Source of the DNA: Alphaproteobacteria bacterium
GTDB lineage: Bacteria; Pseudomonadota; Alphaproteobacteria; SHVP01
Assembly: GCA_038121105.1 (NCBI GenBank)
Contig: JAYONB010000001.1
Location: 354,429 to 418,428 of the forward strand
Reading direction: 5' to 3'
Length of the DNA stretch: 64,000 bases
Part shown: piece after piece, positions 11,100 to 62,874 of the stretch
Numbering within the stretch: the stretch's first letter is position 1
Layout: each line of letters begins with the position of its first letter
Position numbers and translations under genes: made by a program
Notes under the pieces: generated by a model
Database searches by the model: none
Seen by the model: the letters and a program-made list of their open reading frames with translations, nothing else
What the model was told of the DNA's origin: nothing

Positions 11100-11890
11100 C
11101 AGGCGACGTCCTGTTCGGCGCCCAAATAGGCTTCAATGACGGCCGGGTTTTGCTGCACCTCATGGGGCTCGCCTTCGGCGATCTTTTCGCCGAAGTTCAA
11201 CACCACGACATGGTTCGAGATGTCCATCACCATCGACATATCGTGTTCGACCAAGAGAATGGTGACGCCCCACTCTTCTTGCAGGTCGAGGATGAAGCGC
11301 GCCATGTCCTCGGTCTCTTCGCGGTTCATCCCGGCAACAGGTTCGTCGAGCAACAAGAGCTCGGGGCGCATCGCCAGCGCGCGACCGAGTTCGACTCGTT
11401 TTTGCAGGCCATAGGGCAACATCGACACAGGCGTTTTGCGAATGTGATCGATCTCGAGGAAGTCGATGATCTTGCGTTCGATCTCGGCGCGCAGTTCGGT
11501 TTCTTCCCGCCGCGCCGGGCCCCAAAAGACGCCCGCTTCGAGAACGCCGGTCTTGAGGTGGGTGTGCGCACCCAGCTTGATATTGTCGAGTACGCTCATG
11601 CCCGGGAACAACGAGATGTTCTGGAAGGTGCGTGCGATGCCGAGCGCGGCGCGTTTGTGAGTTTTCAGCCGGGTGAATTCGGTACCGTCAAAGATGAGGC
11701 GCCCCGAATCCGGTTGATGGAACCCTGAGACGACATTGAAGAGACTGGTCTTGCCCGCCCCGTTCGGGCCGATCAGGGCGGTGATGCCACCGCGCCGGAC
11801 ATCGAGCGACACCCCCTTGAGCGCCGACACGCCGCCGAAGCTCAGTTCGATGCCCTCAACCTGAAGCAGCGCCGCCGCCTCCGACGTCAC
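11099..11890 (-). CDS. ABC transporter ATP-binding protein (LivG-like)
   Basis: 263 aa. Walker A GPNGAGKTS, Walker B LLLDEPVAG, H-loop HDM. Its stop overlaps the LivH-like start. Confidence 0.85.
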   Translation of the reverse strand: MTSEAAALLQVEGIELSFGGVSALKGVSLDVRRGGITALIGPNGAGKTSLFNVVSGFHQPDSGRLIFDGTEFTRLKTHKRAALGIARTFQNISLFPGMSVLDNIKLGAHTHLKTGVLEAGVFWGPARREETELRAEIERKIIDFLEIDHIRKTPVSMLPYGLQKRVELGRALAMRPELLLLDEPVAGMNREETEDMARFILDLQEEWGVTILLVEHDMSMVMDISNHVVVLNFGEKIAEGEPHEVQQNPAVIEAYLGAEQDVA

Positions 11891-12010
11891 GATCGCTCCC
11901 TAACCTCCTCGCCCCGCGTGCGGTTCGCCGCACGGCATTGTCTTGGGGACATGATAGCGGCAAATGGCGCGGGCGACGACCACGCGGATGGCGCGCCTTT
12001 TTTTGGGGCG

Positions 12011-12832
12011 TCAGTCCAAACCGGCGATGAAACGATCGAGGATCGCGGCTAGCCCGGCGGGCTTGTCGAGCGATACGTGATGGCCCGATCCGGCCACGGT
12101 CGCGATTTCGGCCTGCGGGATAAAGCCGGCCAGTCGCGCGTGGGTGTCGGGCTCGGTGATGTCCGAGTGCTCGCCCCGAACCAAAAGCGTGGGGCAGCCG
12201 ATCTTAAGGGCCTCGACATCGAAGGCGGCGCGGCTCTCAGCCGTTTCGGGTTGTTCGAAATGGCGATACTCGACCCGGCCGTCACCGAGGTCGCGGAACG
12301 AATGAAGCGCGTAGTGGTCTTTCGCAGCCTCGTCCCATAGATCGCTGCGATCCAAGGCGGCGCGACCGGCGGTCATCGAGTCATAGACACGTTTGCGCGG
12401 TGCAAAGTTGAGATTGGGATTGATCCAAATGCCCGCGTCGACAACGGCTATGCCGGCCACGCGCTCGGGCCGCGATGAGGCCATCGTCAACGCCATGTAA
12501 CCGCCGGTGGCGGTGCCGACCACGACAGCGCGCTCGATCGAAAGGGCATCCAGAAACGCCCACATGTCGGACGCGAGGTTTTCGATTTGGTAGCCGGTGG
12601 TCGGGGCCTCACTGAGGCCATGTCCACGCTGATCCGGTGCAATGAACCGTCTGTCGCCGAGCGCGCTGGCATCGACAACGAAGTCCCACGCCCGGGCATT
12701 CGATTTGCTGCCGTGCAGAAAAAGTACGGGCACGCCCTCGCCCGGCCAATCAAGATAGTGCAGCGTGAGGTCCGGCGCGATCGAGATACGGCCTTCTACA
12801 GCCGGGCGTCGAAAGGCCGGCGGCGCAATCAT
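12011..12832 (-). CDS. alpha/beta hydrolase fold protein
   Basis: 273 aa. HG oxyanion region LFLHGSKSNA. Nucleophile-elbow position reads VVVGTATGG. C-terminal GSGHHVSL His region. Start abuts the stop of the FAH gene. Confidence 0.8.
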   Translation of the reverse strand: MIAPPAFRRPAVEGRISIAPDLTLHYLDWPGEGVPVLFLHGSKSNARAWDFVVDASALGDRRFIAPDQRGHGLSEAPTTGYQIENLASDMWAFLDALSIERAVVVGTATGGYMALTMASSRPERVAGIAVVDAGIWINPNLNFAPRKRVYDSMTAGRAALDRSDLWDEAAKDHYALHSFRDLGDGRVEYRHFEQPETAESRAAFDVEALKIGCPTLLVRGEHSDITEPDTHARLAGFIPQAEIATVAGSGHHVSLDKPAGLAAILDRFIAGLD

Positions 12833-50996: not shown

Positions 50997-51694
50997 CCGT
51001 GCTTTCGCCCCTTGAACTCGAGATTATCGCGTTGTCGCTCCGGGTGGCGTTTTGGGCCGTGTTGTTCAGTTTGCCGTTGGCGATCGCCGCGGCCTGGCTT
51101 CTGGCGCGCACGACGTTCCCCGGCAAGGTAATTGTCGATGGTGTGCTTCACCTGCCGTTAGTGGTGCCACCCGTTGTCGTGGGTTTCTCGTTGCTGGTTT
51201 TGTTCGGGCGCCAAGGTGCGATCGGGGGGGGTCTTTACGAGAATTTCGGCGTTTCTTTTGCCTTCGACTGGAAGGGCGCGGCACTGGCCGCCGGCGTCAT
51301 GGCGTTTCCGCTGATGGTGCGTGCCATCCGGTTGTCGATCGAGGCCATCGACCGGCGCCTTGAAACCGCGGCGCGCACCCTGGGCGCTAGCCCGCCTCGG
51401 GTCTTTGCGACGATCACCCTACCGCTGGCATTACCTGGAATATTGGCCGGCACCGTGTTGGCGTTTGCGCGATCGTTGGGGGAATTCGGCGCCACGATCA
51501 CCTTCGTCTCGAACATTCCCGGAGAGACCCGGACGCTGCCGCTTGCCATCTTCACTCTGACGCAGAGCCCAGGCGCGCAGGACGCCATTTTGCGCCTCGT
51601 CTTGATCTCGATCGCGATCGCCTTAGGCGCACTCGTTCTTTCCGAGGTGTTGAGCCGACGCGTGACGGCCCGCATCCGGGGGGATGCGGCATGA
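50993..51694 (+). CDS. modB: molybdate ABC transporter permease
   Basis: GTG overlapping the modA stop (GTGA). EAA-loop LGASPPRVFATITLPLALPGI. Confidence 0.85.
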   Translation: MTVLSPLELEIIALSLRVAFWAVLFSLPLAIAAAWLLARTTFPGKVIVDGVLHLPLVVPPVVVGFSLLVLFGRQGAIGGGLYENFGVSFAFDWKGAALAAGVMAFPLMVRAIRLSIEAIDRRLETAARTLGASPPRVFATITLPLALPGILAGTVLAFARSLGEFGATITFVSNIPGETRTLPLAIFTLTQSPGAQDAILRLVLISIAIALGALVLSEVLSRRVTARIRGDAA

Positions 51695-52776
51695 TCAGTG
51701 TCGCCGTAAGAAAACGGGATGGCGATTTCGTCCTCGACGCTCGGTTCGAATCCAGCGCCGGCGTAACGGCGCTCTTTGGCGTATCGGGCGCCGGCAAGAC
51801 TTCGATCGTCAACGCCATCGCCGGCCTCGTCCGGCCCGACTGGGGCCGGATCACGGTTGGCAATGCGGTCCTTTTCGACTCCGACATGGGGGTGTTCCTG
51901 GCCCCCGAACGCCGCGGCGTCGGTTATGTGTTCCAAGAAGACCGGCTATTTCCCCACCTCGACGTGCGGCGCAACCTGCGTTACGGCAGTCGGCGTCGCG
52001 ATGGTGCGCGCGACGCGCCCGACTTTGACGCGATTGTCGAATTGTTGGGCCTCGATCGTTTGCTCGACCGCTTGCCGCATCGCTTGTCCGGCGGCGAAAA
52101 ACAACGCGTGGCGATCGGGCGGGCGGTCCTGTCCCACCCGCGCCTGTTGCTCATGGACGAGCCCCTGGCCAATTTGGACGCGGCGCGGCGTGACGAGATC
52201 TTGCCTTTTCTGGAAAAGATGTGCCGCGACCTCGCCGTGCCGATCATTTATGTCAGCCATGCGATCGACGAGATTACACGCTTGGCGGATACGCTCGTCG
52301 TTGTCGACGCCGGGAAAACGCTGGCGGTCGGGGCTGTGTCGGAGGTCACGACCCGTTTGGACATCGCCCCCCTTACCGACCGACGCGATGCGGGCACGGT
52401 GCTGGACGGCCGAATCGAAAGTCACGACTCGACCTACCATTTGACGACGGTCTCGTTTCCGGGCGGACAACTGGTCGTCCCCGCCATTGGAGGAATCATC
52501 GGCGAGAAACTAAGGCTCAGAATTCAAGCGCGCGACGTCGCGATCGCGACCGATACGCCAAGCCACATCAGTACGTTGAACTGCCTCCCCGGCGTAATAA
52601 CCGACATCGGGATGCCGCGCCATGCCCATCAAGATATTCTGGTCGACGTAGGGATGCCGATCCTGGCTCGACTGACGTTGCGATCGGTGGCCGATCTCGG
52701 CCTTGCCCCGGGACGGCAGGTCACGGCGCTAATTAAGTCCGTGGCCGTGGACCGGAATGCGGCGGCCGCCGACTAG
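51691..52776 (+). CDS. modC: molybdate ABC transporter ATP-binding protein with a C-terminal TOBE domain
   Basis: 361 aa. Walker A GVSGAGKTS. LSGGEKQR. C-terminal Mop/TOBE-like region. Confidence 0.85.
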   Translation: MISVAVRKRDGDFVLDARFESSAGVTALFGVSGAGKTSIVNAIAGLVRPDWGRITVGNAVLFDSDMGVFLAPERRGVGYVFQEDRLFPHLDVRRNLRYGSRRRDGARDAPDFDAIVELLGLDRLLDRLPHRLSGGEKQRVAIGRAVLSHPRLLLMDEPLANLDAARRDEILPFLEKMCRDLAVPIIYVSHAIDEITRLADTLVVVDAGKTLAVGAVSEVTTRLDIAPLTDRRDAGTVLDGRIESHDSTYHLTTVSFPGGQLVVPAIGGIIGEKLRLRIQARDVAIATDTPSHISTLNCLPGVITDIGMPRHAHQDILVDVGMPILARLTLRSVADLGLAPGRQVTALIKSVAVDRNAAAAD

Positions 52777-53015
52777 GAGTTGATCGCGGTGCAGTCGCGT
52801 TCGCCGAGCGTCTCGGTGCAGCGCACGGTCGGGGCCGGCGGTTCGGCGGGCGGTGGCGGCACTTGGAAGAACTTCCCGACCTCGCCCGGCTGGGCACACC
52901 AAAAGGCCCGTTCGGGCGGTGCGCCGAACTCGGCGCCGCAGGAAAATGACGTCCCGCACCCGCTGAGCGCCAGGAATAATCCAACGAAGAAAAGACGCCG
53001 CGGGCGTTTCCGCAT
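52773..53015 (-). CDS. small putative lipoprotein
   Basis: Track ORF 52773..53042 trimmed to the ATG at 53015. Lipobox LALSGC. Pro-rich C-terminus. Confidence 0.45.
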   Translation of the reverse strand: MRKRPRRLFFVGLFLALSGCGTSFSCGAEFGAPPERAFWCAQPGEVGKFFQVPPPPAEPPAPTVRCTETLGERDCTAINS

Positions 53016-53100
53016 AGGGCGCTCCACTGATACCGGTGACATTCGGATCAGCCTATCCGGACGTGGTTAAAGACGCGTTAAGGGCCCACGCGCGGAGGCG

Positions 53101-53343
53101 TCAGTCGTCGTCGTAGGCCTGGATCGGAATCACCTTGTCGATCACAAAGCCCTTGTCGGCGGGGTAGCGGATCTCAACTTTGCGTCGTGCCACATCGGCG
53201 TCGGCGGCTTCAACTTCCTGGTAGTGGTTTTCGGCCCAGTCGTCGCTCAGGTCTTTGTGGCTTTCGTTTCGTTCCACCAATTTGCGAACAAGGCTGTTGT
53301 AAACCACCACTTCGAAACGATTTTTCTCTTTTCGCAACGGCAT
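53101..53343 (-). CDS. hypothetical protein (~80 aa)
   Basis: Track ORF 53101..53400 trimmed to the ATG at 53343 (MPLRKEKNRFEVVVYN...). No assignable domain. Confidence 0.35.
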   Translation of the reverse strand: MPLRKEKNRFEVVVYNSLVRKLVERNESHKDLSDDWAENHYQEVEAADADVARRKVEIRYPADKGFVIDKVIPIQAYDDD

Positions 53344-53616
53344 GGCCCCCAGCCGATCAGTGGACACCCGCGGTGTCCCCCTATCGCCCTTGAGGACCAT
53401 GCTAGGCCCAATTTACGAGGTCACCAACTGTTCCGACCGACGACCGCGCCGGGACCCGCCCTGGCAAATCACGGAATAGCTACAAAATCTGGTAGAGCCA
53501 CCCCCACCCTCATGCTACATTCTGTGCTTGTATGAGGCAGCGAGAGCTCAAACTCGTCGTCAACGGGAAATGGTGGGCCTGAGTTCAACCAGGTGCAAAT
53601 CATCGCAAACCAACGC

Positions 53617-54522
53617 ATGGGCATCGTTTTGACGCGCGAGTCGCGCCGTGGCCGCAGAATTCTGCTGGTTTCCGCGCTGCTCTTGGCCGTAGGCGGCTGT
53701 AACGCGATCGGCGGGGCCTTTTCATCGGTCAGTAGCTCGGTCAAAGGCGCGGTGTTTCCGGGCGGCGACGAACAAAACAGTGGTCGTTCCACGACCACCG
53801 CTCAAGCGGCGCCCGCACCGGCCGCGAGCAACAATGCGCCCGCGCCCCTAGGCAGCGGGACCTCGGACGAACGCATCGAACGCTTGGAGCAAGAGGTCAC
53901 CGCCTTGCGGGCCGAACTAGCGCAACTCAAGCCCAGCATCGAACGCCTGGTCGGGATCGAAGGCGACATTCGAGTCCTGCTGACGCAGTTGTCGCGGTTG
54001 ACCGGCCCGGACGGCGGTACGACCGAAACGGCGACAAACGAGGCCGAGACGGCCGAGACGGACACCGGTTCGGCAGCTGCACCGGCGCAGGCCCCTAACC
54101 CGCCGGCGCTTCAGCCGGTCGAACAAGCCCAGCCCGCCCCGGCGCCCGGCCAACCACAATCGTTGCGCCCGCTACAGCCCGTGCAAGCCGCAACGGCGGC
54201 ACCGGCGCCGGCTGCGCCCACGCAACTCACCTCGATTTCGCCCTCGGTGGCACCAGCCGAACAAGTCAGCGTCCATCTTGCGTCATTCCGGGGACAGGAT
54301 AGTGCGCGACAAGGTTGGCGCGAATTGCAGGCCACCCATAGCGACCTTTTGGGCGGGCTCGACTATCGCATCAGCCCGGTTCAGCTTTCGGGCGGCCGCG
54401 GCACGTTCTACCGCGTGAAGGCCGGCCCCTTCACCGATACGGCAAGTGCCGAGGAAATCTGCCGCTTAATGAAATCTCGTAACGCCTATTGCGTACTGTC
54501 GGACTTCACGGGCAACAAATAA
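53617..54522 (+). CDS. SPOR-domain lipoprotein (coiled-coil plus Pro/Ala-rich linker plus C-terminal SPOR)
   Basis: ATG at 53617 (GTG at 53593 is the alternative). Lipobox LLAVGGC. Linker of PAPA/PQ repeats. C-terminal VHLASFRGQDSARQGWRELQ...FYRVKAGPFTDTASAEEICRLMKSRNAYCVL is a SPOR-like fold with a Cys pair. Confidence 0.7.
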   Translation: MGIVLTRESRRGRRILLVSALLLAVGGCNAIGGAFSSVSSSVKGAVFPGGDEQNSGRSTTTAQAAPAPAASNNAPAPLGSGTSDERIERLEQEVTALRAELAQLKPSIERLVGIEGDIRVLLTQLSRLTGPDGGTTETATNEAETAETDTGSAAAPAQAPNPPALQPVEQAQPAPAPGQPQSLRPLQPVQAATAAPAPAAPTQLTSISPSVAPAEQVSVHLASFRGQDSARQGWRELQATHSDLLGGLDYRISPVQLSGGRGTFYRVKAGPFTDTASAEEICRLMKSRNAYCVLSDFTGNK

Positions 54523-54524
54523 CT

Positions 54525-57500
54525 CTATAGCCGCGCGCGGGTGACCCGACAGGTCTGACCGTCCGCGATGAGACGGGCGCATATCGAAAGCGCATTGATT
54601 TCCGTAAACGGACCGACCAGCAACGGACGCTTATCGGCAACCGGGTCGGCACTTTGAAGCGGACGGGCACTTTGCAAAACGTCGGGGTAAAGACGGCGCA
54701 TCAACTGCCAGCCTGCATCGACGCCGGTTTGCGATCCGTACTCGCCAAGGCGGACCGCAACGACCGTCTCGGCCGGGGTGTCAGACACGGCATCGGCGGT
54801 TTCTTCGATTGCCGGCAATGGTGCTTTCTCCACAGGCCACACCGGCTCGGCCGCAACCACAGGCCCGATGGGACGTAGACCGGGTAGTGGTGCGGGGGCT
54901 TTCGTATCCGCAGCCGCCATCGGTGTGTCCGTCACGATCGGTTTTGCGTCGCAGCGCGGGACGCTGCTGCCAAGTTGTACGCACAACGCCTCACTTCCTT
55001 CCCGCGTCAACGGGCCGACCTGCAATACCTCGGGGTCAACGCCGGATTGACGGTCCGCGCCTTCTAAGTCCGCCGCATAGAGCCGGCGCAATAACGACCA
55101 CGCGATATCGGCGCGATCCGCTGTGGGATAGCGGCCGAGGTCGACGATGACTGGAACATCCGTAGAGAAATCGATCGGCCCCTCCGTGGCGGTCGGGGCA
55201 TTTATTTCACCGGATACAGCTTCAATCGAAGACGGCAACAGAACCGGCGGCTCGGGAACATAAGGAAACCCGACAACGTCGCATGAAATATTGGTTGCCT
55301 TGAGCCGTGCGCAAACCGTCTCAGCGGCAGCAGGCGAAAGGCGGCCTAGTGTAAGGTCGAAGGGTCCAGCCTGCTGGTCGAGCGGTGTCTCAAGCGCAAG
55401 GCTCCCTAAGAGTTCCGGATAAAGCTCACGGTAAATCGCCACCGAAGCGCGGGCGCTTTCCGGGGTGGGGAATAGCCCCAACCGAACTGCCGCTAACTTT
55501 AGATCGGCCGGTGGCGGCAGCGTCAGACCGGGTCGGCCGGTCACAATTTGAACTCCCAAGATCGGATCGGCTTCGGGGGTAACCGGCACCGGAATCCGAC
55601 GCGGCGCGGGGACGACTAGCCCTTGAGTCGCAACGTTTTCGGGAGAGAGCTGGATCGTATAGTCACCGGGAAACACATTCACAAAGAGGAAGAAACCATC
55701 GAAGAGCGTTTGATCGGTGCTGACCACTTCGCCCTGGCTGTTTCGCAACTCGACCGTCACCCCCGGAAGCGGTGATAGTTCGGCGCCTTCATCGAGGAGC
55801 GCGACGACCGACCCCTCGATCTCGGTTGTGAGCGCAACCGGGAAATCGATGGTATTTGTCCGACCCGGACGCGGTAACACCGACCGCCCTGTAACCAACG
55901 GCGCGAGGAATGGATCCGGCAACGAACCCGGCCGAACGCGAACATCAGTTAATAGGTACGGCGGCAGTCGCTTGACGAACGCAATTCCCTCCTCGTTGGT
56001 ATCATCCGACTTGTTCGCTTGTACCGCCTCGACCCGAACATCCGGCAACAACTCCTCGCCCGGATCGAGCTGGCGGTTCAGGTTCTCGTCGCGAAAGACA
56101 CGGGCAGCAACCGCGCCGCCACCGGTAAAGGTCGACCCTGCAGTCTCCACGCGCCCAGAGAAAGGTTCTCGACCCGCGGCAAACGAAAGGCTCAACAATG
56201 CGAAGAACTGGTTGTTCGAATCGTATGTCAACGTGGGACTCAGGATGAAGCGATCGAACCGATAGCTTCCGCCTAAGCTATAGGCCTTACGTTGCGACAA
56301 TAGGAAGCGCTGATATCCAAGTCGGGCTTGCGATCTATTGTTGATCGTCCAATTGATGTCGCCATCAACTCGCTGCAATTGACGCGTCTCGATCAGACGG
56401 TAGCTGGCGCCAAGCCGAAAGTTGACGGGAGACACAAAAACGGAGTTCTGCACCGTTCCGGTAAGGGAACGCTGCTGGTTCGCCGAGGGAAGATCTAAGC
56501 GGGCCCATTCCAATGTATTCGACAATCGAAAGCGACCGAGCCCTGTACTGTTGCTTAGTCGAGCACTATCCGAAACCGTACCGGTCTCGGAGACAATCCG
56601 GCTCGCTGACGCAGTATAGGGAAGCTCGAAGGCGCCGATGATCGGGATATCCCCGGAAGCCGATACACTAAACCCGTTGGCGTTGGACGGACCCGAAGCC
56701 TGCGTGGTCTCGAATCGCAATCCAACTGACTGGCCACCATACGATGTCCGGTATTCAGCAGTCGCATTCCACCCCGAATCAAATGATGTGGTTGTACCTA
56801 GACTCGCCACACCGTCAAACAAAGGCGAACTCACTGCCGCATCGAGACTACCAGTGCTCGGCCTACCGGTATCAACAAAGGAAAGACCGGCAGATGCGGA
56901 TACTCCGTTCGAAAAACTGCGCTGCACATTGACCGCGCTTGCGAGCGGTCCCGGCTCCTGCGAAACCGGCTCAAGTGGAATCAGAGGTTCGCCGGGTTTG
57001 AATATTGCAGCCGAATATGTCGGCAAATTCGTTAACCTGCCGACCGACGTGACGGTTCGTGACGCCCGTTCCTCACGGATCTCGCCTTGTGTTCCGTAAA
57101 AGACGAGACGGAACTCGTTGTCCCCCAACACCAAAGGTACGTCACGAAATTCGTAACGGCCGTCGTCCCCTACGGTTTGGAGATCCTGCAAAATTCCGTT
57201 GCGGTATAGCTCGATGTCAGTTCCCGGTTGTTCGGTACCGACGAAGTCAGTCGTCGTCCCAAGATTTTGAATTCCAGTTGTGTTATTTGTGATGAACCCC
57301 CCGATTCCCGTGCCTCCAACGGGCAGGCCCGGCGCAATGACATCACCCACCTCGACGCGAGTTGCCTGAAGCGGCCCTAGGAGGCCACCAGTCGGGTCCT
57401 CGCGACGGAGGGTTAGCCGCGCTGAATTGAAAAGGTCATCTCGATTCCCACTCAGGAAGAATTCACCGGTTGCTAGCCCAAGATCCCCACGGCCGACAAC

Positions 57501-58577
57501 TGAATAGTTCTGTGTTGTCCGGAGCTCCTGACCCGGCACATCAAGCAAGGAAGACTGAAGACGCACGTCTGCAAAAGGCCAGTCGATTGCGCGGTACGGA
57601 TCGTCGATGCGCGGCAGCGATGGTTCGTTTCGCCGTGCTCGACGCACGCCGGCGATCCGTCGCTGCCGCTCAAGCCTTTGTTGTAACGGAATCGGTGTTT
57701 CAGGAACTACGCTGACGACAAGGTCTCGAAAATCAACATCCAAGCGCACACTGAACCAAATCGCGAATACATCGCTGTGAACAAGGATCGAGTCATCCAG
57801 ACGTCGTACATCGTTGGCGACAACTTCAATTGTTTCTCCCTCGATCGTCACGATCCCCGCATTGAGGTCAAGTGCGAAGGTGTTCTCTGGATTGATGAAG
57901 AAACCAGAAGCTGTGCCGCTCGGGGCATCGACGTCGATCGCGAACTCAAGGAGTTCAACGGCTTCCCCAAGGTCGACTAGAATTCCGTCGCCCTGTTTGA
58001 CCCCAAACAGAGACTGGAGGAACCGTCGGTTGTCGATCCGGACCTCGAAAATCAGTTCTTCGCCATCCGGTATTCCTGATTCATCGTCTGCAAGCGTCAG
58101 AGCCGAAACTGTTGTTTCCGCTTCTACCTCGACGAGTGGAGCCTCGAGCAAAGGGCCGCGGAGTCGCCTGACAAATTCAGTCGCAAGGTTCTTGCGAACC
58201 TCGTCTTGCGTTTCCTTGGTATCGGTGATGGCCAACAAACGTCGGGCCAAGTCAGCCTCGGGGCCAGTGACCGGGGCTAGGTTCGTTGATGGCACCGCCG
58301 GCTGAATCGTATCGGCGGGAATGAGGGGCGCCGAACTGACTGGAGGAACAAGCGGCCTGGTGTCAGCAATCACCGGAGCGTCGCTTTCCGGCGAAGCATC
58401 CCCTGCTCCAGCCGAAGGGCCAGCTTCTTGTCCGTCAGGAAGTCGTTTGAGAAATTCCTCGAGTAGTGGGGTTAGGTCGCTGGTCTGTTGAGCAATCGCA
58501 GTCTCGGCGCCAAGCGACAAGCCGGAAATCGAGACGCCCACCGCCGCAACAAGACGCTGGAGGTATGAAAGGCACAC
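54525..58577 (-). CDS. chaperone-usher pathway outer-membrane usher homologue (1350 aa) with an N-terminal extension and three C-terminal SPOR-like repeats
   Basis: GTG at 58577, 9 nt after GGAGG. Signal peptide present. Usher N-terminal-domain-like region, then the plug motif FVGTEQPGTDIELYRNGILQDLQTVGDDGRYEFRDVPLVLGDNEFRLVFYGTQGEIREERASRTVT. A long S/T/G/N-rich amphipathic beta-barrel stretch ends ...LLSLSFAAG. A PapC-C-like region follows (VTVELRNSQGEVVSTDQTLFDGFFLFVNVFPGDYTIQ). Then come three ~75-aa repeats (LG.F/Y...A....L.RRLYP.L...VGPF......C..L.....C.V) resembling SPOR domains. Confidence 0.8.
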   Translation of the reverse strand: MCLSYLQRLVAAVGVSISGLSLGAETAIAQQTSDLTPLLEEFLKRLPDGQEAGPSAGAGDASPESDAPVIADTRPLVPPVSSAPLIPADTIQPAVPSTNLAPVTGPEADLARRLLAITDTKETQDEVRKNLATEFVRRLRGPLLEAPLVEVEAETTVSALTLADDESGIPDGEELIFEVRIDNRRFLQSLFGVKQGDGILVDLGEAVELLEFAIDVDAPSGTASGFFINPENTFALDLNAGIVTIEGETIEVVANDVRRLDDSILVHSDVFAIWFSVRLDVDFRDLVVSVVPETPIPLQQRLERQRRIAGVRRARRNEPSLPRIDDPYRAIDWPFADVRLQSSLLDVPGQELRTTQNYSVVGRGDLGLATGEFFLSGNRDDLFNSARLTLRREDPTGGLLGPLQATRVEVGDVIAPGLPVGGTGIGGFITNNTTGIQNLGTTTDFVGTEQPGTDIELYRNGILQDLQTVGDDGRYEFRDVPLVLGDNEFRLVFYGTQGEIREERASRTVTSVGRLTNLPTYSAAIFKPGEPLIPLEPVSQEPGPLASAVNVQRSFSNGVSASAGLSFVDTGRPSTGSLDAAVSSPLFDGVASLGTTTSFDSGWNATAEYRTSYGGQSVGLRFETTQASGPSNANGFSVSASGDIPIIGAFELPYTASASRIVSETGTVSDSARLSNSTGLGRFRLSNTLEWARLDLPSANQQRSLTGTVQNSVFVSPVNFRLGASYRLIETRQLQRVDGDINWTINNRSQARLGYQRFLLSQRKAYSLGGSYRFDRFILSPTLTYDSNNQFFALLSLSFAAGREPFSGRVETAGSTFTGGGAVAARVFRDENLNRQLDPGEELLPDVRVEAVQANKSDDTNEEGIAFVKRLPPYLLTDVRVRPGSLPDPFLAPLVTGRSVLPRPGRTNTIDFPVALTTEIEGSVVALLDEGAELSPLPGVTVELRNSQGEVVSTDQTLFDGFFLFVNVFPGDYTIQLSPENVATQGLVVPAPRRIPVPVTPEADPILGVQIVTGRPGLTLPPPADLKLAAVRLGLFPTPESARASVAIYRELYPELLGSLALETPLDQQAGPFDLTLGRLSPAAAETVCARLKATNISCDVVGFPYVPEPPVLLPSSIEAVSGEINAPTATEGPIDFSTDVPVIVDLGRYPTADRADIAWSLLRRLYAADLEGADRQSGVDPEVLQVGPLTREGSEALCVQLGSSVPRCDAKPIVTDTPMAAADTKAPAPLPGLRPIGPVVAAEPVWPVEKAPLPAIEETADAVSDTPAETVVAVRLGEYGSQTGVDAGWQLMRRLYPDVLQSARPLQSADPVADKRPLLVGPFTEINALSICARLIADGQTCRVTRARL

Positions 58578-58603
58578 GGTGTTTGCCTCCGGACCAATCC
58601 TCC

Positions 58604-59449
58604 CTAATTACCGATCTGGAAGCTTTGGTCGAACCAAGTGCGTCCGGCGTATTCGTCAGCGCCGACAAACGCCACTCTTAGGATCCCTGGTGGTATTTGC
58701 TGCTGATTGAGCAAAACGGTAGCCAGGCGCGATTGCACATCGGGATAGACCGCTACGTTCTGGAGCAATCCAATTTGCGACTCCGGCGAGTTCGGGTTCT
58801 GTCTCCAGTAAATGCGCAATCGCCCGTAGGCACTGAAGTTGCCCTCTTGAGCTAGTTGAACCTTCAGACCCAGGCGGTTCAGTTCATCGACACTCAGCTC
58901 CGCACCGGACAAACTGACGCCGGGTCGGCCGCCGCCGTGACGAATCATAATCGGAATTGCAAAGCCAAGATTCATGAAGACCTGAATCGCCGCTCCGCCG
59001 CTCCCACTCTGTCGGGCAGCGCTTCGTTGGCGTTCGTCGATAACCACAAAGGCGAGATGGGACCGGTATTCACCGGTCGGAAGATCGGCTGGGCGTCGCA
59101 ACGCAAGCCGAACCTGTTGCCGTTCACCCGGACCGAGCGTCACTTGGCGCGGACTGAACCGCACATAGGGACTCGCAATCCGCATCTCAGGTGTCGGGTC
59201 GGCTACATCAACATACTGGCCGTCTACGGTTGCGGTCTTCTCCTGCCACTCCAGCCTATAAGTTGCTGCGGTATCGCTTTGATTGGTAACTATCACCGTG
59301 GCTGATCGCTCGCGACCTTCGAAAATGACCCGCAAGGGACTAATGAGAAGTTGGGCGCTGGCCTGCTGACCGATCGCGACCGCAAAGAGACCGCTGAACG
59401 TCAGGAGGCGAAGCCAGGGGAGAAAGCTCTGAAGAGGGAAAAACGACAT
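58604..59449 (-). CDS. periplasmic pilus chaperone (PapD/CsuC-like)
   Basis: 281 aa. Signal peptide. PapD-N pattern LLISPLRVIFEGRERSATVIVTNQSDTAATYRLEW...PYVRFSPRQVTLGPGERQQVRLAL. Confidence 0.8.
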   Translation of the reverse strand: MSFFPLQSFLPWLRLLTFSGLFAVAIGQQASAQLLISPLRVIFEGRERSATVIVTNQSDTAATYRLEWQEKTATVDGQYVDVADPTPEMRIASPYVRFSPRQVTLGPGERQQVRLALRRPADLPTGEYRSHLAFVVIDERQRSAARQSGSGGAAIQVFMNLGFAIPIMIRHGGGRPGVSLSGAELSVDELNRLGLKVQLAQEGNFSAYGRLRIYWRQNPNSPESQIGLLQNVAVYPDVQSRLATVLLNQQQIPPGILRVAFVGADEYAGRTWFDQSFQIGN

Positions 59450-59548
59450 GTCGATGCCCGGTTCTTTAGGAAAGAATCTGGCTTTCTCTAATAAAGACCC
59501 ATGGTTAACGGATTGCTAATCTCGCCGCAAGAGGGCCGATTCAACAAT

Positions 59549-60037
59549 TCAATAGTTCACGATAAGGGAAGCTGTGCCAGCGTATTGACGGTCGTCATAG
59601 GGCGTGCCGTCGCCGGACGTCTCGAGCGTTCCGCCGATGAATATGGTTACGCTGCCTGTTGGATCGGTCGAAATGTTGGGCGAATAGACGAAACCGACGT
59701 TGAACTTCTTGCCTGTGCCCTGGCCGTCTTCTGAGAGTTCGATCGGTTGAATACTCAGTGACAGAGCGGTGGAGGGCTGAAATCCTGTCGCCAGGAACTC
59801 GGCACGCTGCGGCGCCGATATCACAAGAATGTTTGCGGTTTCTGAATAGGTTCCGTTCAGGTTCAGGACCAATCGTTCCTTGGCATTGTTCGATCGCATG
59901 GCAATCGTGCCGAAACTGAATTGCTGTTGAAGCGTGATGATCTGAGCGCTTGCAGAGCTTGCTAAAACCAAACCGATTGCCAAGGCGAATCCGACCCGAG
60001 TCGGAATCCCTAACCAATTTCTGTTGACATTCTCCAT
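59549..60037 (-). CDS. SCPU-domain (spore coat protein U / CsuA-B-like) pilus subunit, minor type
   Basis: 162 aa. Signal peptide ...LASSASAQ. C-terminal GTLETSGDGTPYDDRQYAGTASLIVNY is typical of SCPU-domain proteins. Confidence 0.7.
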   Translation of the reverse strand: MENVNRNWLGIPTRVGFALAIGLVLASSASAQIITLQQQFSFGTIAMRSNNAKERLVLNLNGTYSETANILVISAPQRAEFLATGFQPSTALSLSIQPIELSEDGQGTGKKFNVGFVYSPNISTDPTGSVTIFIGGTLETSGDGTPYDDRQYAGTASLIVNY

Positions 60038-60105
60038 CGGCGCTAGATTAAGGCGAGTTGGTTAACGAAACAAAAATGGGTGCCGCGATACGCCAAAGGC
60101 CGTGC

Positions 60106-60144
60106 GCACGAAAAACCCCGCGACCGAAAAGCGGCCGCGGGGCT
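60106..60144 (-). terminator. intra-operon intrinsic terminator/attenuator after the second major pilin gene
   Basis: On the minus strand: CCCCGCG-GCCGCTTTTCGGT-CGCGGGG hairpin followed by TTTTTCGTG. Confidence 0.55.
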
Positions 60145-60170
60145 GTTCAGTAGTGCTGATGGCAAAAGAA

Positions 60171-60770
60171 CTAGAACGCAAATGTAACGCTAAACGTGCC
60201 CGTATAAGTGCCATCAGAGTAGCCGTTGTCTTCGGCACCACCGGAGGTTTGCTGCCGTGTGGTTAAGGTGCCGCCCACGTTGACCGTCAACGCACCTGAC
60301 GCATCCGTCGTGCAGTTAAAGCCTGCACATACCGCCGCTACGTCAAAGTCGAACTGAGTTTCGCCGGTCACTGCCGGATCAACCAGCTGAATGGTCGAAC
60401 CCTGGGTCACGGTGAAAAGCGTACTCGGTGGCGCCGCGGTAATGGCAATCACACCCGGGGTCGGGTTACCGACGACCAGAATACGCGCCGTCCCGTTTCC
60501 GTTGGTTGCCGTTGCCGTTCCCGAATTGCCCGCAAGGACGAGCGTGGCTTGGGTGTTTGCGCCGGTGGGATCCGCGATCGCGGCAATCGTTCCCATCGAG
60601 AGGGGCGTCGTCATGCCCACGGTGAAAGTGTTCTGCACGGTAACCGAAGCGGAGTAGTTTACCGTTTGGCTTTGTGCCAGTGCGGCGTCTGATAGACCCA
60701 CAAAAAAAGCGCCCACCGCAATAGCGGCGACCGCTTTGGCCTTTAGTCTCGAAGACAGACCATAAAACAT
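60171..60770 (-). CDS. SCPU-domain pilin (major-subunit candidate, tandem copy 2)
   Basis: Track ORF 60171..60863 trimmed to the ATG at 60770, 7 nt after AGGA. Signal MFYGLSSRLKAKAVAAIAVGAFFVGLSDAALAQ. Mature part colinear with 60903..61496. Ends ...GTYTGTFSVTFAF. Confidence 0.75.
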   Translation of the reverse strand: MFYGLSSRLKAKAVAAIAVGAFFVGLSDAALAQSQTVNYSASVTVQNTFTVGMTTPLSMGTIAAIADPTGANTQATLVLAGNSGTATATNGNGTARILVVGNPTPGVIAITAAPPSTLFTVTQGSTIQLVDPAVTGETQFDFDVAAVCAGFNCTTDASGALTVNVGGTLTTRQQTSGGAEDNGYSDGTYTGTFSVTFAF

Positions 60771-60834
60771 TTGAAATCCTAAGCTGATTCGCACGCGGAA
60801 GAGATTTCCCAAATCTGCCGCGCTGAACCGTTCA

Positions 60835-60876
60835 AGAAAAAGTTCACTCCCACGAGCCGGCAATCGACTCGCGGGA
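60835..60876 (-). terminator. intra-operon hairpin plus T-run after the first major pilin gene
   Basis: On the minus strand: TCCCGCGAG-loop-CTCGTGGGA (one mismatch) followed by GTGAACTTTTTCT. Confidence 0.45.
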
Positions 60877-60902
60877 GCGCACTTAAGACCTAGACCAGTA
60901 GA

Positions 60903-61496
60903 TTAGAACGCCAACGTAACAGCGTACGTACCGGTGTAGGTGCCGTCCGAGTAACCATTGTCTTCGGCACCACCAGAGGTCTGTGCACGCGTCGACAAAG
61001 TCCCACCAACGTTGATGGTCAATGCACCAGCTGCATCGGTTGTGCAGTTGAACCCTGCGCAAACGGCCGCCGGCGTGAAGTTGAACGTGGTCTCACCAGC
61101 AACGGCCGGGTCAACCAACTGAATTGTCGATCCCTGAGTCACGGTGAACAGCGTGCTCGGCGGTGCGGCAGTGACAGAAAGCACACCCGGCGTTGCGGCG
61201 GTGATTGCCAAAATCCGAGCCGTGCCGTTGCCATTCGTGGTGGTCGAAGTACCCGAGTTGCCGGCCAAGACCAAGGTGGCCTGGGTGTTGGCACTGGTCG
61301 GGTCCGCAACCGCGGCGATCGTGCCGAGGTTGAGAGCGGTGGTCTCGCCGACGGTGAAGGTATTCTGGACGGTCACCGAAGCGGTGTAGTTAACCGTCTG
61401 GCTTTGAGCGTTCGCGTCTTGCGTACCAAAAGCCACAACAGCGAGCGCGGCAACAGCGGCGATCGCCAAATGGTGAAGTTTCAAAAATTTCGTCAT
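60903..61496 (-). CDS. SCPU-domain pilin (major-subunit candidate, tandem copy 1)
   Basis: Track ORF 60903..61604. Start ATG at 61496 (preceded by AGGA), or ATG at 61505. Signal MTKFLKLHHLAIAAVAALAVVAFGTQDANAQ. Ends ...GTYTGTYAVTLAF. TAA stop. Confidence 0.75.
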   Translation of the reverse strand: MTKFLKLHHLAIAAVAALAVVAFGTQDANAQSQTVNYTASVTVQNTFTVGETTALNLGTIAAVADPTSANTQATLVLAGNSGTSTTTNGNGTARILAITAATPGVLSVTAAPPSTLFTVTQGSTIQLVDPAVAGETTFNFTPAAVCAGFNCTTDAAGALTINVGGTLSTRAQTSGGAEDNGYSDGTYTGTYAVTLAF

Positions 61497-62148
61497 TCTA
61501 CTCATCCTACTTTCGTTGTTCCTCGTTAGGCTGCCTTTAGTCGAGGGATTCTCTTGGTGATATCTGTCGCCGCCTGGCGGGGTAGCTTCAGTTCGAACAC
61601 CCATCTTTCTGACGAGCCCCGATCACCGGGAGAATTTCTTCTCGGACGTCCCTTTCGGTCTGCCCTCCTTACAACGGCTCTACCGCCGGTAGATGTGTCA
61701 ATGATCACACCCCGACGACTTCGCCGCCAATTATGGTGGCCCCGTTTCCTGCCGTTCCGCCGCCAACACCGCTCTGTGAACGAAATTGACAAGGGACGAC
61801 CCTCCAGACGCCACACTCCGCTAGTCAGCTCGCAAGTTTCGGGCCAACTTGAAACCCGCACGTTCTTGCTCGCAAAAGTTGCTAAAATCCGAAATATCCT
61901 TGGATTCCCCTGAGTCGCACCAAGGGCTTTCATGGTTAACAACACCGCACACGGTAGATCATTCCCACCCTCGGCATCTTTTACCCGGCAAAACTTGCCG
62001 GGGATGCATCTCTGGTAGTTTCTTCCGGGTTGATGGGACGCCGCGCCCTCGCGCGCATCGTCAGATCGGCAAGCTATTCACCAAATTGGCCGGATCGGGA
62101 CACTAAAATCGGGACAACAAACTGTCCCACTGCGATACGATTGCGCTG

Positions 62149-62874
62149 ATGCCGCCCGCCCGCAACCTTGCCGCCTCACTCCAACGCTGGACGTTTTTGG
62201 TCCCGTTGGGCCTTGCCTACCTGATCGGCATCTTGACCTGGCAGAGTTGGGAATTCTTCTTGGTGATGTCGATCCTGGCTCTCGGACCCGCGGTGTTTGG
62301 GTGCGCCGACCCGGTGGGCGAACTGGTCGACTATATCGGGCGTGAGCGTCGACGGCGTGAACAGGCCCAGTCCCGGCGCCAGACCGTCGAACAACACGCT
62401 GTGAATTTTCTCCGTCTATTGCCGGACCAAAGCGCCGAGGAACTCAGGATCATGGCGCAATGCCTGATTCGGGGGCGCAACGGGTTCAATCGCGACCCGG
62501 CCGACCCGGTGGCGCTGAAACTGACCGAGCGCGGCATTGCCTATGCCGAGCCCGGTTTCACGCCGGCGGGATTTCCGTTCTACTTCACCGACCGGGCCTG
62601 GGTGCTGATGAACGAACTGCGCGACGACGTGTTCGCCGCGCACGACAAGGTCGACGACCAAGCCCTGACGCCCGAACCCGTCCCACGCCCGCGCTTTCAC
62701 CTGCTCTGGTTTATCCACGATCTGGTATTCATCATCCTGAAAGGCCCGGTGCTTTTTCTCGTCATCCTGACAGGTGGCGCCTTTGCCTGGTTCGCCTGGG
62801 TTGCCGCCATGGCGGTGGTCATCGTCGCGCTGGTTTCCACTGGCTATGCGGTGCGCTGGCTTTTGGGGTTCTGA
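62149..62874 (+). CDS. hypothetical membrane protein
   Basis: 241 aa. TM segments at both ends. No SD. No assignable domain. Confidence 0.4.
   Translation: MPPARNLAASLQRWTFLVPLGLAYLIGILTWQSWEFFLVMSILALGPAVFGCADPVGELVDYIGRERRRREQAQSRRQTVEQHAVNFLRLLPDQSAEELRIMAQCLIRGRNGFNRDPADPVALKLTERGIAYAEPGFTPAGFPFYFTDRAWVLMNELRDDVFAAHDKVDDQALTPEPVPRPRFHLLWFIHDLVFIILKGPVLFLVILTGGAFAWFAWVAAMAVVIVALVSTGYAVRWLLGF

Follow-up and report, generated by a model that had tools for sequence, protein, structure and literature searches.

A probable chaperone-usher type operon of a deeply divergent class, with DUF4402 subunits and SPOR-family repeats on a predicted usher

In the 64 kb stretch of alphaproteobacterial DNA analyzed here (the window) we found a chromosomal operon that probably encodes a surface fibre of the chaperone-usher type, belonging to a deeply divergent and uncharacterised class. 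The operon stands far above chance: conserved homologues exist for all five of its proteins, and relatives with 56-72% usher identity show synteny over the entire locus. The class is widespread. In species-representative bacterial genomes we count at least 596 related loci, in which a SPOR domain is often fused to the usher or encoded beside it, and we found no description of the class in the literature. The subunits lead to DUF4402 (PF14352), which Pfam lists as a domain of unknown function. The database description of the family does not connect DUF4402 with a chaperone, an usher-fold protein or SPOR, and our literature search yielded no paper dealing with DUF4402 or with fusions of SPOR to an usher.

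The operon consists of five consecutive minus-strand open reading frames (ORFs), A1, A2, B, chaperone and usher, in the order that the first-pass annotation had given (pilin, pilin, shorter subunit, chaperone, usher). The functional class given there holds as well, an operon of the chaperone-usher type in which two major-subunit paralogues in tandem are joined by a shorter subunit, a PapD-like chaperone and an usher, and the C-termini that had been quoted are found in the translations (DGTYTGTYAVTLAF, DGTYTGTFSVTFAF and YAGTASLIVNY). The span assigned to the operon, 58604-61604, omits the usher, an unusually large protein of 1350 aa whose ORF occupies 54525..58577 (minus strand). A signal peptide is followed in it by an N-terminal extension, the usher core and then the three SPOR repeats. 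The major subunit paralogue A1 (60903..61496, minus strand) lies in an ORF that is open from 61604 (61604..60903, 233 aa); the true start is likely the ATG at 61496, which has AGGA 8 nt 5' of it and gives 197 aa, the homologues having 197-198 aa. The second paralogue, A2 (60171..60770, minus strand; ORF 60863..60171), likely begins with the ATG at 60770 (MFYGL...; 199 aa). The short subunit B (59549..60037, 162 aa ORF) and the PapD-like periplasmic chaperone (58604..59449, 281 aa ORF) follow on the same minus strand. Scanning the whole window gave no further pilin, chaperone, usher or SPOR ORF, so that no CsuE-like gene lies 3' of the usher.

B matches PF14352 with an E-value of 5.7e-8 and 33.9 bits (cut-off 25.2), its residues 35-162 covering model positions 4-129, which identifies it at the sequence level as a DUF4402 protein. 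A1 and A2 give no direct match to PF14352. They are homologous to B by BLASTP (E 1e-7 to 1e-8; A1 versus B also given as 3e-7), and 70 of the 96 members of the A1/A2 family match the model (best E 9.3e-17); judged by homology, the long subunits are relatives of DUF4402. Indeed, short and long subunits of relatives reach the Pfam threshold just as B does. A1 and A2 had been called near-identical, which overstates their likeness: they share a common architecture and are 82% identical over 170 aa, in the mature domain. Both paralogues are kept on the same contigs in relatives.

The long subunits differ from B at the N-terminus. The signal peptide of A1, predicted by eye, ends in ...DANA and is followed by QSQ. 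Mature residues 1-17 (QSQTVNYTASVTVQNTF) form an N-terminal extension, after which a DUF4402-type beta-sandwich begins. Within the extension, a putative donor strand, hydrophobic residues alternate (V5, Y7, A9, V11 and V13), and in the AF2 monomer model of A1 (pLDDT 93.3) residues 1-17 are unpaired and lie outside every strand. Alignment with A1 and A2 shows that B is devoid of these 17 residues, its domain beginning about 3 residues past the predicted signal-peptide cleavage site (ASA, then QIITLQQQFSFG). The same holds for other short subunits, in which the DUF4402 model sets in 3 residues after cleavage, compared with about 16 in one long subunit. Such a pair of a long subunit with and a short subunit without extension recurs in many related loci. 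Additionally, 28 relatives of at least 295 aa have two domains; all 14 whose N-termini were inspected begin without an extension, and in locus L018 one of these extension-free proteins occupies the position of B. Lack of a donor sequence implies a location at the tip (PMC6003481). Because B has no extension and an extension-free two-domain protein takes the same position in relatives, B is probably the tip subunit; it is our candidate for a tip (or initiator) subunit on sequence grounds. The earlier statement that the operon has no tip-adhesin gene is right insofar as the window holds no two-domain CsuE-type gene. As a statement about the tip it is probably misleading and probably wrong in substance.

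Two terminator-like hairpins separate the subunit genes. The first, found by a terminator scan just 3' of the A1 stop codon (60845..60879, minus strand), has a GC-rich stem of 15 bp followed by a T-run and resembles an intrinsic terminator or an attenuator; RNAfold gives -55.4 kcal/mol for the A1-A2 spacer. The second, with coordinates derived from the RNAfold fold, lies 3' of the A2 stop codon (60114..60144, minus strand), its GC-rich stem of 13 bp leading into TTTTT. Locus L081 has an equivalent hairpin 3' of its first pilin gene and another in the A2-B spacer.

The chaperone is divergent in sequence. It scores 20.1 bits on PF00345, under the threshold of 23, and a Pfam search gave no match to PF02753, the other domain that had been proposed for its verification. 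Among 120 listed of its 645 homologues, many are named fimbrial chaperone or carry PF00345, and the family profile finds weak PDB matches to CupB2, FimC, CsuC and PapD. Alignment to FimC by hhalign gave 72% probability (E 3.4e-5) and placed Arg40 on FimC Arg8. This arginine is invariant in the chaperone family and, counted from the predicted cleavage site, also has position 8 in the mature chaperone. From these comparisons we assign the protein as a PapD-like chaperone that has kept the equivalent of the subunit-anchoring Arg8 of the type 1 and P pilus systems.

The usher was recognised through its predicted fold. Neither PF00577 nor the NCBIfam usher models match the protein, and PF00577 matches none of 75 homologues. 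The AF2 model of the core (residues 160-1045; 55443..58100, minus strand; pLDDT 85.5) has an N-terminal domain, 6 + 18 barrel strands around a beta-sandwich plug and C-terminal beta-sandwich domains. The plug bears the most conserved motif of the usher family (GxDxELYRNG...DGRYxF...FRLVFYG), and the C-terminal region contains a CarboxypepD_reg/SdrD_B-like sandwich, a difference from the classical ushers. Foldseek against the PDB returned FimD and PapC structures for all of the top 18 matches (best E 1.4e-27, about 917 columns, 11-14% identity). The model thus predicts a complete usher architecture, with a 24-strand barrel, the plug inserted after strand 6 (between strands 6 and 7, as in FimD and PapC of type 1 and P pili) and the N-terminal and C-terminal domains of these ushers. 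Unlike the fold, the sequence shows next to no likeness: hhalign of the usher family with FimD gave 2.5% probability and aligned only one C-terminal-domain motif, the CTD1 motif TD..G.A.L....Y......D...L.D. What the present protein adds to FimD and PapC is three C-terminal SPOR domains and a proline-rich N-terminal extension (residues 31-159; 58101..58487, minus strand), which has no Pfam match, is conserved in homologues P0002-P0011 and includes a conserved helical-looking stretch, LARRLLAITDT...FVRRLRG. Eleven full-length homologues (1342-1364 aa, 56-100% identity) keep all three repeats.

The first of these repeats, R1 (residues 1027-1103; 55269..55499), aligns to positions 6-72 of the 76 of PF05036 with an E-value of 0.029, which is below threshold, and matches the SPOR lipoprotein encoded next to the usher by BLASTP (E 3.7e-4). 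R2 (residues 1141-1213; 54939..55157) follows from the alignment with R1 and R3 and was recovered by the repeat profile with an E-value of 5.5e-19 in a small local database, while R3 (residues 1271-1350; 54528..54767) is the best conserved of the three. All are on the minus strand and contain a C-x10-C pair. R2 and R3, each alone, gave no Pfam SPOR match. At the family level the assignment holds: 17 of 32 homologous repeats match PF05036 (best E 4.1e-12), and in the PDB the repeat profile matches best to two SPOR domains, those of CwlC (1x60, E 8e-4) and FtsN (1uta, E 0.056). The Pfam-verified SPOR domain of the neighbouring lipoprotein was also picked up by a profile of R1, R2 and R3 of the window. 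By family-level sequence comparison, the usher C-terminus consists of three SPOR-family repeats. Compared with known SPOR proteins (FtsN, DamX, DedD, RlpA and CwlC), the domain family is the same, but the protein to which the one to three SPOR copies are joined is an outer-membrane usher and not a division protein or lytic enzyme. The C-x10-C pair is specific to the present family, and binding of denuded glycan is putative here. The fusion is found in 64 of 159 family ushers (1-3 copies); because about 60% of the family ushers have no SPOR, it is not essential to the usher class. No classical usher is known to us to carry a module that binds peptidoglycan, and our literature search found none.

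The gene that converges on the usher (53593..54522, plus strand, 309 aa) encodes the SPOR lipoprotein, which scores 28 bits on PF05036 (cut-off 21) and has a lipobox-like LAVGGC. Its last base is 2 bp from the usher stop codon. The first-pass annotation had noted this lipoprotein on the other strand, correctly, and taken it as an unrelated boundary. It may instead belong to the system as an accessory part, given that the usher has three SPOR repeats of its own and that SPOR lipoprotein genes lie within the operon in relatives. In 20 of 80 loci, separate SPOR lipoproteins are encoded next to the operon. In gammaproteobacterial relatives they are on the same strand, directly 3' or 5' of the operon, and of those examined in L016 and L034 three reach 34.7-36.7 bits with the Pfam SPOR model, like the lipoprotein of the window above threshold. 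L002, L081 and the P0003 contig have the same convergent SPOR gene as the window; it could be conserved simply via synteny.

Taken together with what is known of donor-strand exchange, we infer the following mode of fibre formation. A1 and A2 would be the polymerising stalk subunits, the 17-residue extension of each completing the fold of the preceding subunit, which would be Ig-like and incomplete, with an acceptor groove. B, having no extension, could accept a strand but not donate one and would be the first, distal (tip) subunit. The hairpins past A1 and A2 would supply stalk subunits in excess of B, chaperone and usher. By analogy with FimD and PapC, the three SPOR repeats, which stand past the usher C-terminal domains with proline-rich linkers between them, should lie in the periplasm. 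There they may hold the usher to peptidoglycan, whether to bear load as an anchor or to site it at septal or polar wall rich in denuded glycan, and the convergent SPOR lipoprotein may cooperate with the usher; these last steps are speculative. A functional analogy is offered by PilQ of type IVa pili, whose AMIN domains in Myxococcus xanthus and P. aeruginosa attach to peptidoglycan at septum and poles and thereby give rise to the polar pattern of piliation (PMC10653833; PMC5285504). Both are outer-membrane fibre conduits with tandem periplasmic peptidoglycan-binding domains, putatively so for the present usher, and AMIN varies in presence among secretins as SPOR does among the present ushers. 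However, the usher is not a secretin and SPOR is not AMIN, and the analogy extends to the proposed function only.

The operon had been named Csu-like, that is, archaic with SCPU pilins, and in some respects it looks the part. With Csu of Acinetobacter baumannii (csuA/BABCDE) and CupE of Pseudomonas aeruginosa it shares the order subunits, chaperone, usher, several subunit paralogues, and small secreted subunits with an N-terminal extension and a C-terminal ...Y..T..VT..F/Y strand, and donor-strand complementation is presumed alike for Csu/CupE and the present system (PMC6003481). By eye the layout of N-terminal extension and FG motif is similar to CsuA/B, the C-terminal motif Y-x-G/D-T-x-x-V-T-x-x-F/Y resembles that of CsuA/B (...GDYKDTLLVTVNF), and CsuC is among the weak PDB matches of the chaperone profile. 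However, the PF05229 search, set beforehand as the test of the SCPU claim, matched none of A1, A2 and B even at E<=10, while the controls CsuA/B (4e-22; 3.8e-22) and CupE1 (3.5e-32) matched strongly. For 96 subunit relatives 41 families matched at E<=1, and the 25 of these that were listed do not include PF05229. When the subunit profile was aligned to CsuA/B and CupE1 by hhalign, only the last 18 residues, the stretch of the C-terminal motif, aligned, with 0.7% probability. The A1 model gave no significant Foldseek match in the PDB (best E 0.24) and no Csu, CupE or Fim pilin, although Csu and CupE pilins were both in the database searched. The subunits are thus DUF4402 and not SCPU, with no detectable similarity in profile or fold; the usher, outside PF00577, is 500 residues longer than those of Csu/CupE, and the chaperone falls short of both Pfam chaperone models. 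Two-domain proteins of the CsuE/CupE6 type follow the usher neither here nor in any of 80 related loci, the extension-free subunit of the present operon being single-domain and placed before the chaperone. We therefore rejected the Csu-like identity, and a sigma-clade operon of the Csu/CupE/Mcu kind that has simply lost its CsuE-type adhesin is quite unlikely.

Usher-like machinery might also serve something other than a pilus, for example a DUF4402 surface coat or short envelope structure (compare Myxococcus Mcu, which exports spore coat protein U) or an outer membrane/peptidoglycan envelope complex. That the usher is physically joined to cell-wall-binding domains and that the subunit fold matches no known pilin would suit such a structure, as would the flanks of the gammaproteobacterial versions, where SPOR lipoprotein, FlgO-family (three copies) and FlgT_M-like envelope lipoprotein genes are found. 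The conserved alternating extension of the long subunits, unpaired in the monomer model, the conserved long/short pairing and the hairpins, which suggest one subunit type in large excess, are hallmarks of polymerising fibres and argue against it; we consider this reading unlikely, and a fibre the better account. A decaying remnant, or an assembly artefact that fused an usher to SPOR genes, is very improbable. In L001, the closest public genome, the genes for A2 and the SPOR lipoprotein are both frameshifted, and the GC content of the operon (0.55-0.58) lies below that of its flanks (0.63-0.66). Against this, all five ORFs are unbroken in the window, the 1350 aa three-repeat architecture is kept in the eleven homologues across their whole range of identity, and the locus is syntenic across the clade.

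Five consecutive ORFs occupy positions 54525-61604 of the minus strand, encoding two long subunit paralogues, A1 and A2, a short subunit B, a PapD-like chaperone and an exceptionally long usher. The ORF of A1 runs from 61604 to 60903 (minus strand); its product is most likely 197 aa long and starts at ATG 61496, because homologues measure 197-198 aa and an AGGA motif lies 8 nt before this ATG. For A2 (60863 to 60171, minus strand) we place the start at ATG 60770, giving 199 aa, since the 5' part of the ORF overlaps a strong hairpin. B (162 aa ORF, 60037 to 59549), the chaperone (281 aa ORF, 59449 to 58604) and the usher (1350 aa ORF, 58577 to 54525) follow on the same strand, and a SPOR lipoprotein gene on the plus strand (53593 to 54522) ends 2 bp from the usher stop codon. 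The operon seen in the first-pass annotation is thus present, but the coordinates assigned to it leave out its largest gene, the 1350 aa ORF. Signal peptides ending in A-x-A followed by Q were read by eye, with no predictor, in all five operon proteins. A1 and A2 share 82% identity over 170 residues and each is about 30% identical to B (E 1e-7 to 1e-8); megablast of the A1 against the A2 DNA gave no match. We found no further pilin, chaperone, usher or SPOR-like ORF within the 64 kb window, and none of the seven proteins searched had a match in NCBIfam.

The subunits had been assigned to the spore coat U (SCPU) family, and this assignment fails. PF05229 matches none of A1, A2 and B even at E<=10, and it is also missing from the 25 families that were listed, out of 41 matched at E<=1, for 96 A1/A2 relatives. 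The positive controls CsuA/B and CupE1, whose sequences were checked against PDB 7ZL4 and 8CIO, gave 3.8e-22 and 3.5e-32 on PF05229 in the same library. B belongs to DUF4402 (PF14352; 33.9 bits, cut-off 25.2), which is also matched by 70 of the 96 A1/A2 relatives, at best with 9.3e-17. The C-termini that had been quoted for the subunits are present in the sequences and their resemblance to the spore-coat-U type is real yet limited to one strand: a profile-profile comparison of the pilin family with CsuA/B and CupE1 aligned the last 18 residues only, with 0.7% probability. Comparison with FimA by hhalign gave nothing, phmmer of the single A1 sequence against PDB sequences gave nothing useful and the pilin profile nothing credible. 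The AlphaFold model of mature A1 (pLDDT 93.3, pTM 0.85) had no significant Foldseek match in the PDB (best E 0.24), and Csu, CupE and Fim pilins were absent from the matches. Because Foldseek can miss small beta-sandwiches, we describe the A1 fold as having no detectable similarity, not as a proven new fold. No paper on DUF4402 was found in the searchable literature. The observation behind the first-pass annotation is confirmed in part, and its interpretation is partly supported.

Judged from its predicted fold, the 1350 aa protein is an usher. The model of residues 160-1045 (39-sequence alignment, pLDDT 85.5) contains, in this order, an N-terminal domain, 6 barrel strands, a beta-sandwich insertion, 18 barrel strands and C-terminal sandwiches, and hence predicts the defining architecture of FimD and PapC, a barrel of 24 strands whose plug sits between strands 6 and 7. 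In a Foldseek search of the PDB the top 18 matches were all FimD or PapC (best E 1.4e-27), the best one spanning about 917 aligned columns at 11-14% identity. The most conserved motif of the usher family, GxDxELYRNG...DGRYxF...FRLVFYG, sits in the plug. Searches with the sequence gave no PF00577 or NCBIfam match, and phmmer of the single usher against PDB sequences yielded nothing useful; the family profile found only an SdrD/NOMO-like sandwich in the PDB, and hhalign of the family with one FimD sequence aligned just a short CTD1 motif (2.5% probability). The 75 homologues of the usher carry the labels hypothetical, "carboxypeptidase regulatory-like" or "SD-repeat".

The chaperone scores 20.1 bits on PapD_N, below the threshold of 23, and phmmer of the single sequence against PDB sequences gave nothing useful. 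Of its 645 homologues 120 were listed, and many of these have PF00345 or a name as fimbrial chaperone. The family profile produced few, weak matches in the PDB, almost all of them to pilus chaperones (CupB2, FimC, CsuC, PapD). In the hhalign comparison with E. coli FimC (72% probability, E 3.4e-5) the invariant Arg40, which is residue 8 of the predicted mature chaperone, falls on FimC Arg8. In classical chaperones Arg8 anchors the subunit carboxylate.

Both ends of the usher are extended. Residues 31-159 form a proline-rich N-terminal extension in which a Pfam search found no known domain, and the last 320 residues hold three repeats of about 75 residues, R1 to R3 (1027-1103, 1141-1213 and 1271-1350), each with a C-x10-C pair and separated by proline-rich linkers. 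We treat these repeats as putative divergent SPOR domains, since R1 matches the SPOR model weakly (E 0.029) but over its full length, a profile of R1-R3 alone recovers the Pfam-verified SPOR domain of the neighbouring lipoprotein, PF05036 matches 17 of 32 homologous repeats of family members (best 4.1e-12) and the repeat profile finds the SPOR domains of CwlC and FtsN as its best PDB matches. R2 and R3 searched singly gave no SPOR match. From the analogy of FimD and PapC, the repeats, placed after the usher C-terminal domains, are expected in the periplasm. SPOR is fused to the usher, in one to three copies, in 64 of 159 family ushers; the sphingomonad-type usher of about 900 aa lacks it. In 20 of 80 loci the operon has separate SPOR lipoprotein genes as immediate neighbours, and in gammaproteobacterial loci such genes are on the same strand, within tens of bases of the usher stop, their products scoring above threshold on Pfam SPOR. 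As a typical genome encodes only a handful of SPOR proteins (a rough estimate), this adjacency is far above chance. Two loci go further: in Pseudoalteromonas shioyasakiensis (L016:11422-13406) the usher and SPOR lipoprotein are followed by three same-strand FlgO-family lipoproteins (PF17680, E 1e-35 to 1e-44), and in a Cellvibrio MAG (L034:11713-13122) by a same-strand FlgT_M-like protein (PF16539, E 1e-18). In Vibrio, the FlgO and FlgT_M families are known from the outer rings of the flagellar motor; the window contains no such genes. The searchable literature yielded nothing on a system combining SPOR with an usher, or a chaperone-usher pathway with FlgO, FlgT or SPOR.

The operon had also been described as having no tip adhesin. 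Indeed no CsuE-type gene follows the usher, but B is probably a tip subunit itself. Aligned with A1 and A2, it begins at their first intradomain strand and lacks the 17-residue N-terminal extension QSQTVNYTASVTVQNTF, a putative donor strand that lies outside any strand in the A1 monomer model. In keeping with this alignment, the DUF4402 model starts 3 residues past the predicted cleavage site in two short subunits, B and one from Pseudoalteromonas, versus about 16 residues past it in the long subunit, and the difference was seen in all long/short pairs inspected. A chaperone-usher subunit without a donor sequence can only occupy the distal end and initiates assembly (PMC6003481), from which we infer the tip position of B. 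About 28 representative clusters (within P0273-P0397) are two-domain DUF4402 proteins of 297-427 aa, and among the 28 proteins of at least 295 aa all 14 N-termini inspected are of the short, extension-less type, while the C-terminal end is a pilin-like domain. This layout matches that of a two-domain tip adhesin, here within the DUF4402 class, and in a Marinobacter MAG (L018:6491-7498) such a protein takes the position of B between long subunit and chaperone. That B acts in exactly this form, as a single-domain tip subunit, we give an even chance.

Taken as a whole, a chaperone-usher fibre is the likely product of the operon. All components would be exported by Sec, as their signal peptides suggest, and the conserved arginine suggests that the chaperone would capture the subunits via its Arg8 cleft. 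The usher would begin with the chaperone-B complex, after which A1 and A2 would be added by donor-strand exchange through the predicted 24-strand pore. The SPOR repeats, perhaps with the help of the SPOR lipoprotein, would tie the usher to peptidoglycan, either as a mechanical anchor or for targeting to septal or polar denuded glycan; for each of these roles the chances are even at best, perhaps slightly lower. Targeting would parallel the PilQ secretin, which is placed by its AMIN domains (PMC10653833, PMC5285504). If true, these would be chaperone-usher pili with built-in septal or polar positioning or a load-bearing anchor, undescribed for any usher.

Relatives of the usher core were found at at least 596 loci in a pattern scan with one genome per species. 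Among the matches listed, the best (99%) comes from a MAG (JAYQJC010000002.1) of an uncultured alphaproteobacterium that is presumably closely related to the source, and among the other carriers are Sphingomonadales, Rhodospirillales, Micavibrio, Vibrio, Pseudoalteromonas, Alteromonas, Glaciecola, Cellvibrio, Desulfobacterales, Bdellovibrionales, Nitrospinaceae, Chlorobiaceae and Thermoanaerobaculia. In higher taxa, the range takes in Alpha- and Gammaproteobacteria as well as Acidobacteriota. The recurrent order in 80 loci is long subunit (about 200 aa), short subunit (about 155-165 aa), chaperone (about 280 aa) and usher (about 900-1100 aa). The mechanism class is already known. The DUF4402-type subunit family as pilin, the usher family, the SPOR fusion and the single-domain extension-less subunit placed before the chaperone all appear undescribed in the searchable literature and the returned annotation names. 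Chaperone-usher pili have been catalogued largely by usher and pilin Pfam families; the DUF4402 class escapes both, so that its at least 596 loci are labelled "hypothetical" or "carboxypeptidase regulatory-like". Tentatively, and at somewhat less than even chances, we propose an unrecognised major chaperone-usher class, whose DUF4402 fibres have no detectable relation to solved pilins, whose ushers are missed by sequence models and of which a large subgroup is tied to the wall via SPOR domains and partner SPOR lipoproteins. Should the prediction hold, it would widen the known pathway diversity, give DUF4402 a function and provide the first usher with a peptidoglycan-binding module; such an usher would make two questions directly testable, namely what determines the place of non-retractile pili on the cell and how the pulling load of the fibre passes to the cell wall. 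Since many carriers are marine or particle-associated (Pseudoalteromonas, Alteromonas, Glaciecola, Vibrio, sphingomonads), the fibres may have a part in attachment to surfaces and particles.

The close alphaproteobacterial clade retains both long paralogues, an usher of 1342-1364 aa and the neighbourhood in full, with modCBA and the convergent SPOR lipoprotein gene. In the window, 51691-52776 (plus strand) encodes a ModC-like ABC ATPase of 361 aa, and small ORFs of 89 and 99 aa (52773-53400, minus strand) separate its gene from the SPOR gene. In relatives (L081:11872-14419) permease and binding-protein genes come after the corresponding ABC_tran+TOBE gene, together encoding a molybdate-type transporter; this transporter borders the locus in every close relative and helps to mark the syntenic boundary. 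The GC content drops to 0.55-0.58 over the operon (54500-62000) versus 0.63-0.66 in the flanks (50-54.5 kb, 62.5-64 kb). Horizontal transfer, which such a dip could indicate, was rejected: relatives whose ushers are 56-72% identical have the locus in synteny, bounded by modCBA on one side and by the same upstream genes on the other. The dip may reflect the Thr/Ser/Asn/Gly-rich proteins. In the MAG with 99% usher identity (L001, JAYQJC01) A2 is split into two ORFs (5332-5930) and the C-terminus of the SPOR lipoprotein (11620-12525) is out of frame, due either to a MAG assembly error or to real decay; both genes are intact in the window.

GC-rich hairpins with a T-run follow the stop codons of A1 (60879 to 60845, minus strand) and A2 (about 60144 to 60114, minus strand), and a relative whose usher is 56% identical has equivalent hairpins behind both of its long subunit genes. 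On the model of other fimbrial operons, we read them as putative partial terminators that would hold the stalk subunits in excess. A sigma-70 promoter scan of 53-63 kb gave no hit, Rfam found nothing in the window, and the search for invertible-promoter repeats upstream of A1 returned nothing beyond an 11-nt pair and one short palindrome, with no fimS-like switch. Divergent from the operon, across a spacer of about 650 nt, a predicted membrane protein of 241 aa without Pfam or NCBIfam match is encoded at 62149-62874 (plus strand). At the matching upstream position, on the opposite strand, the related loci L081 and L082 and the contig of the homologous protein P0003 have a gene of 241-264 aa without Pfam match, the likeness being one of size and position. 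The divergent gene is closely preceded by a tandem direct repeat of 14 nt, ATCGGGACACTAAA / ATCGGGACAACAAA (62094-62121), and a 28-nt imperfect palindrome lies at 61983-62030; both may be operator-like sites of a shared regulatory region.
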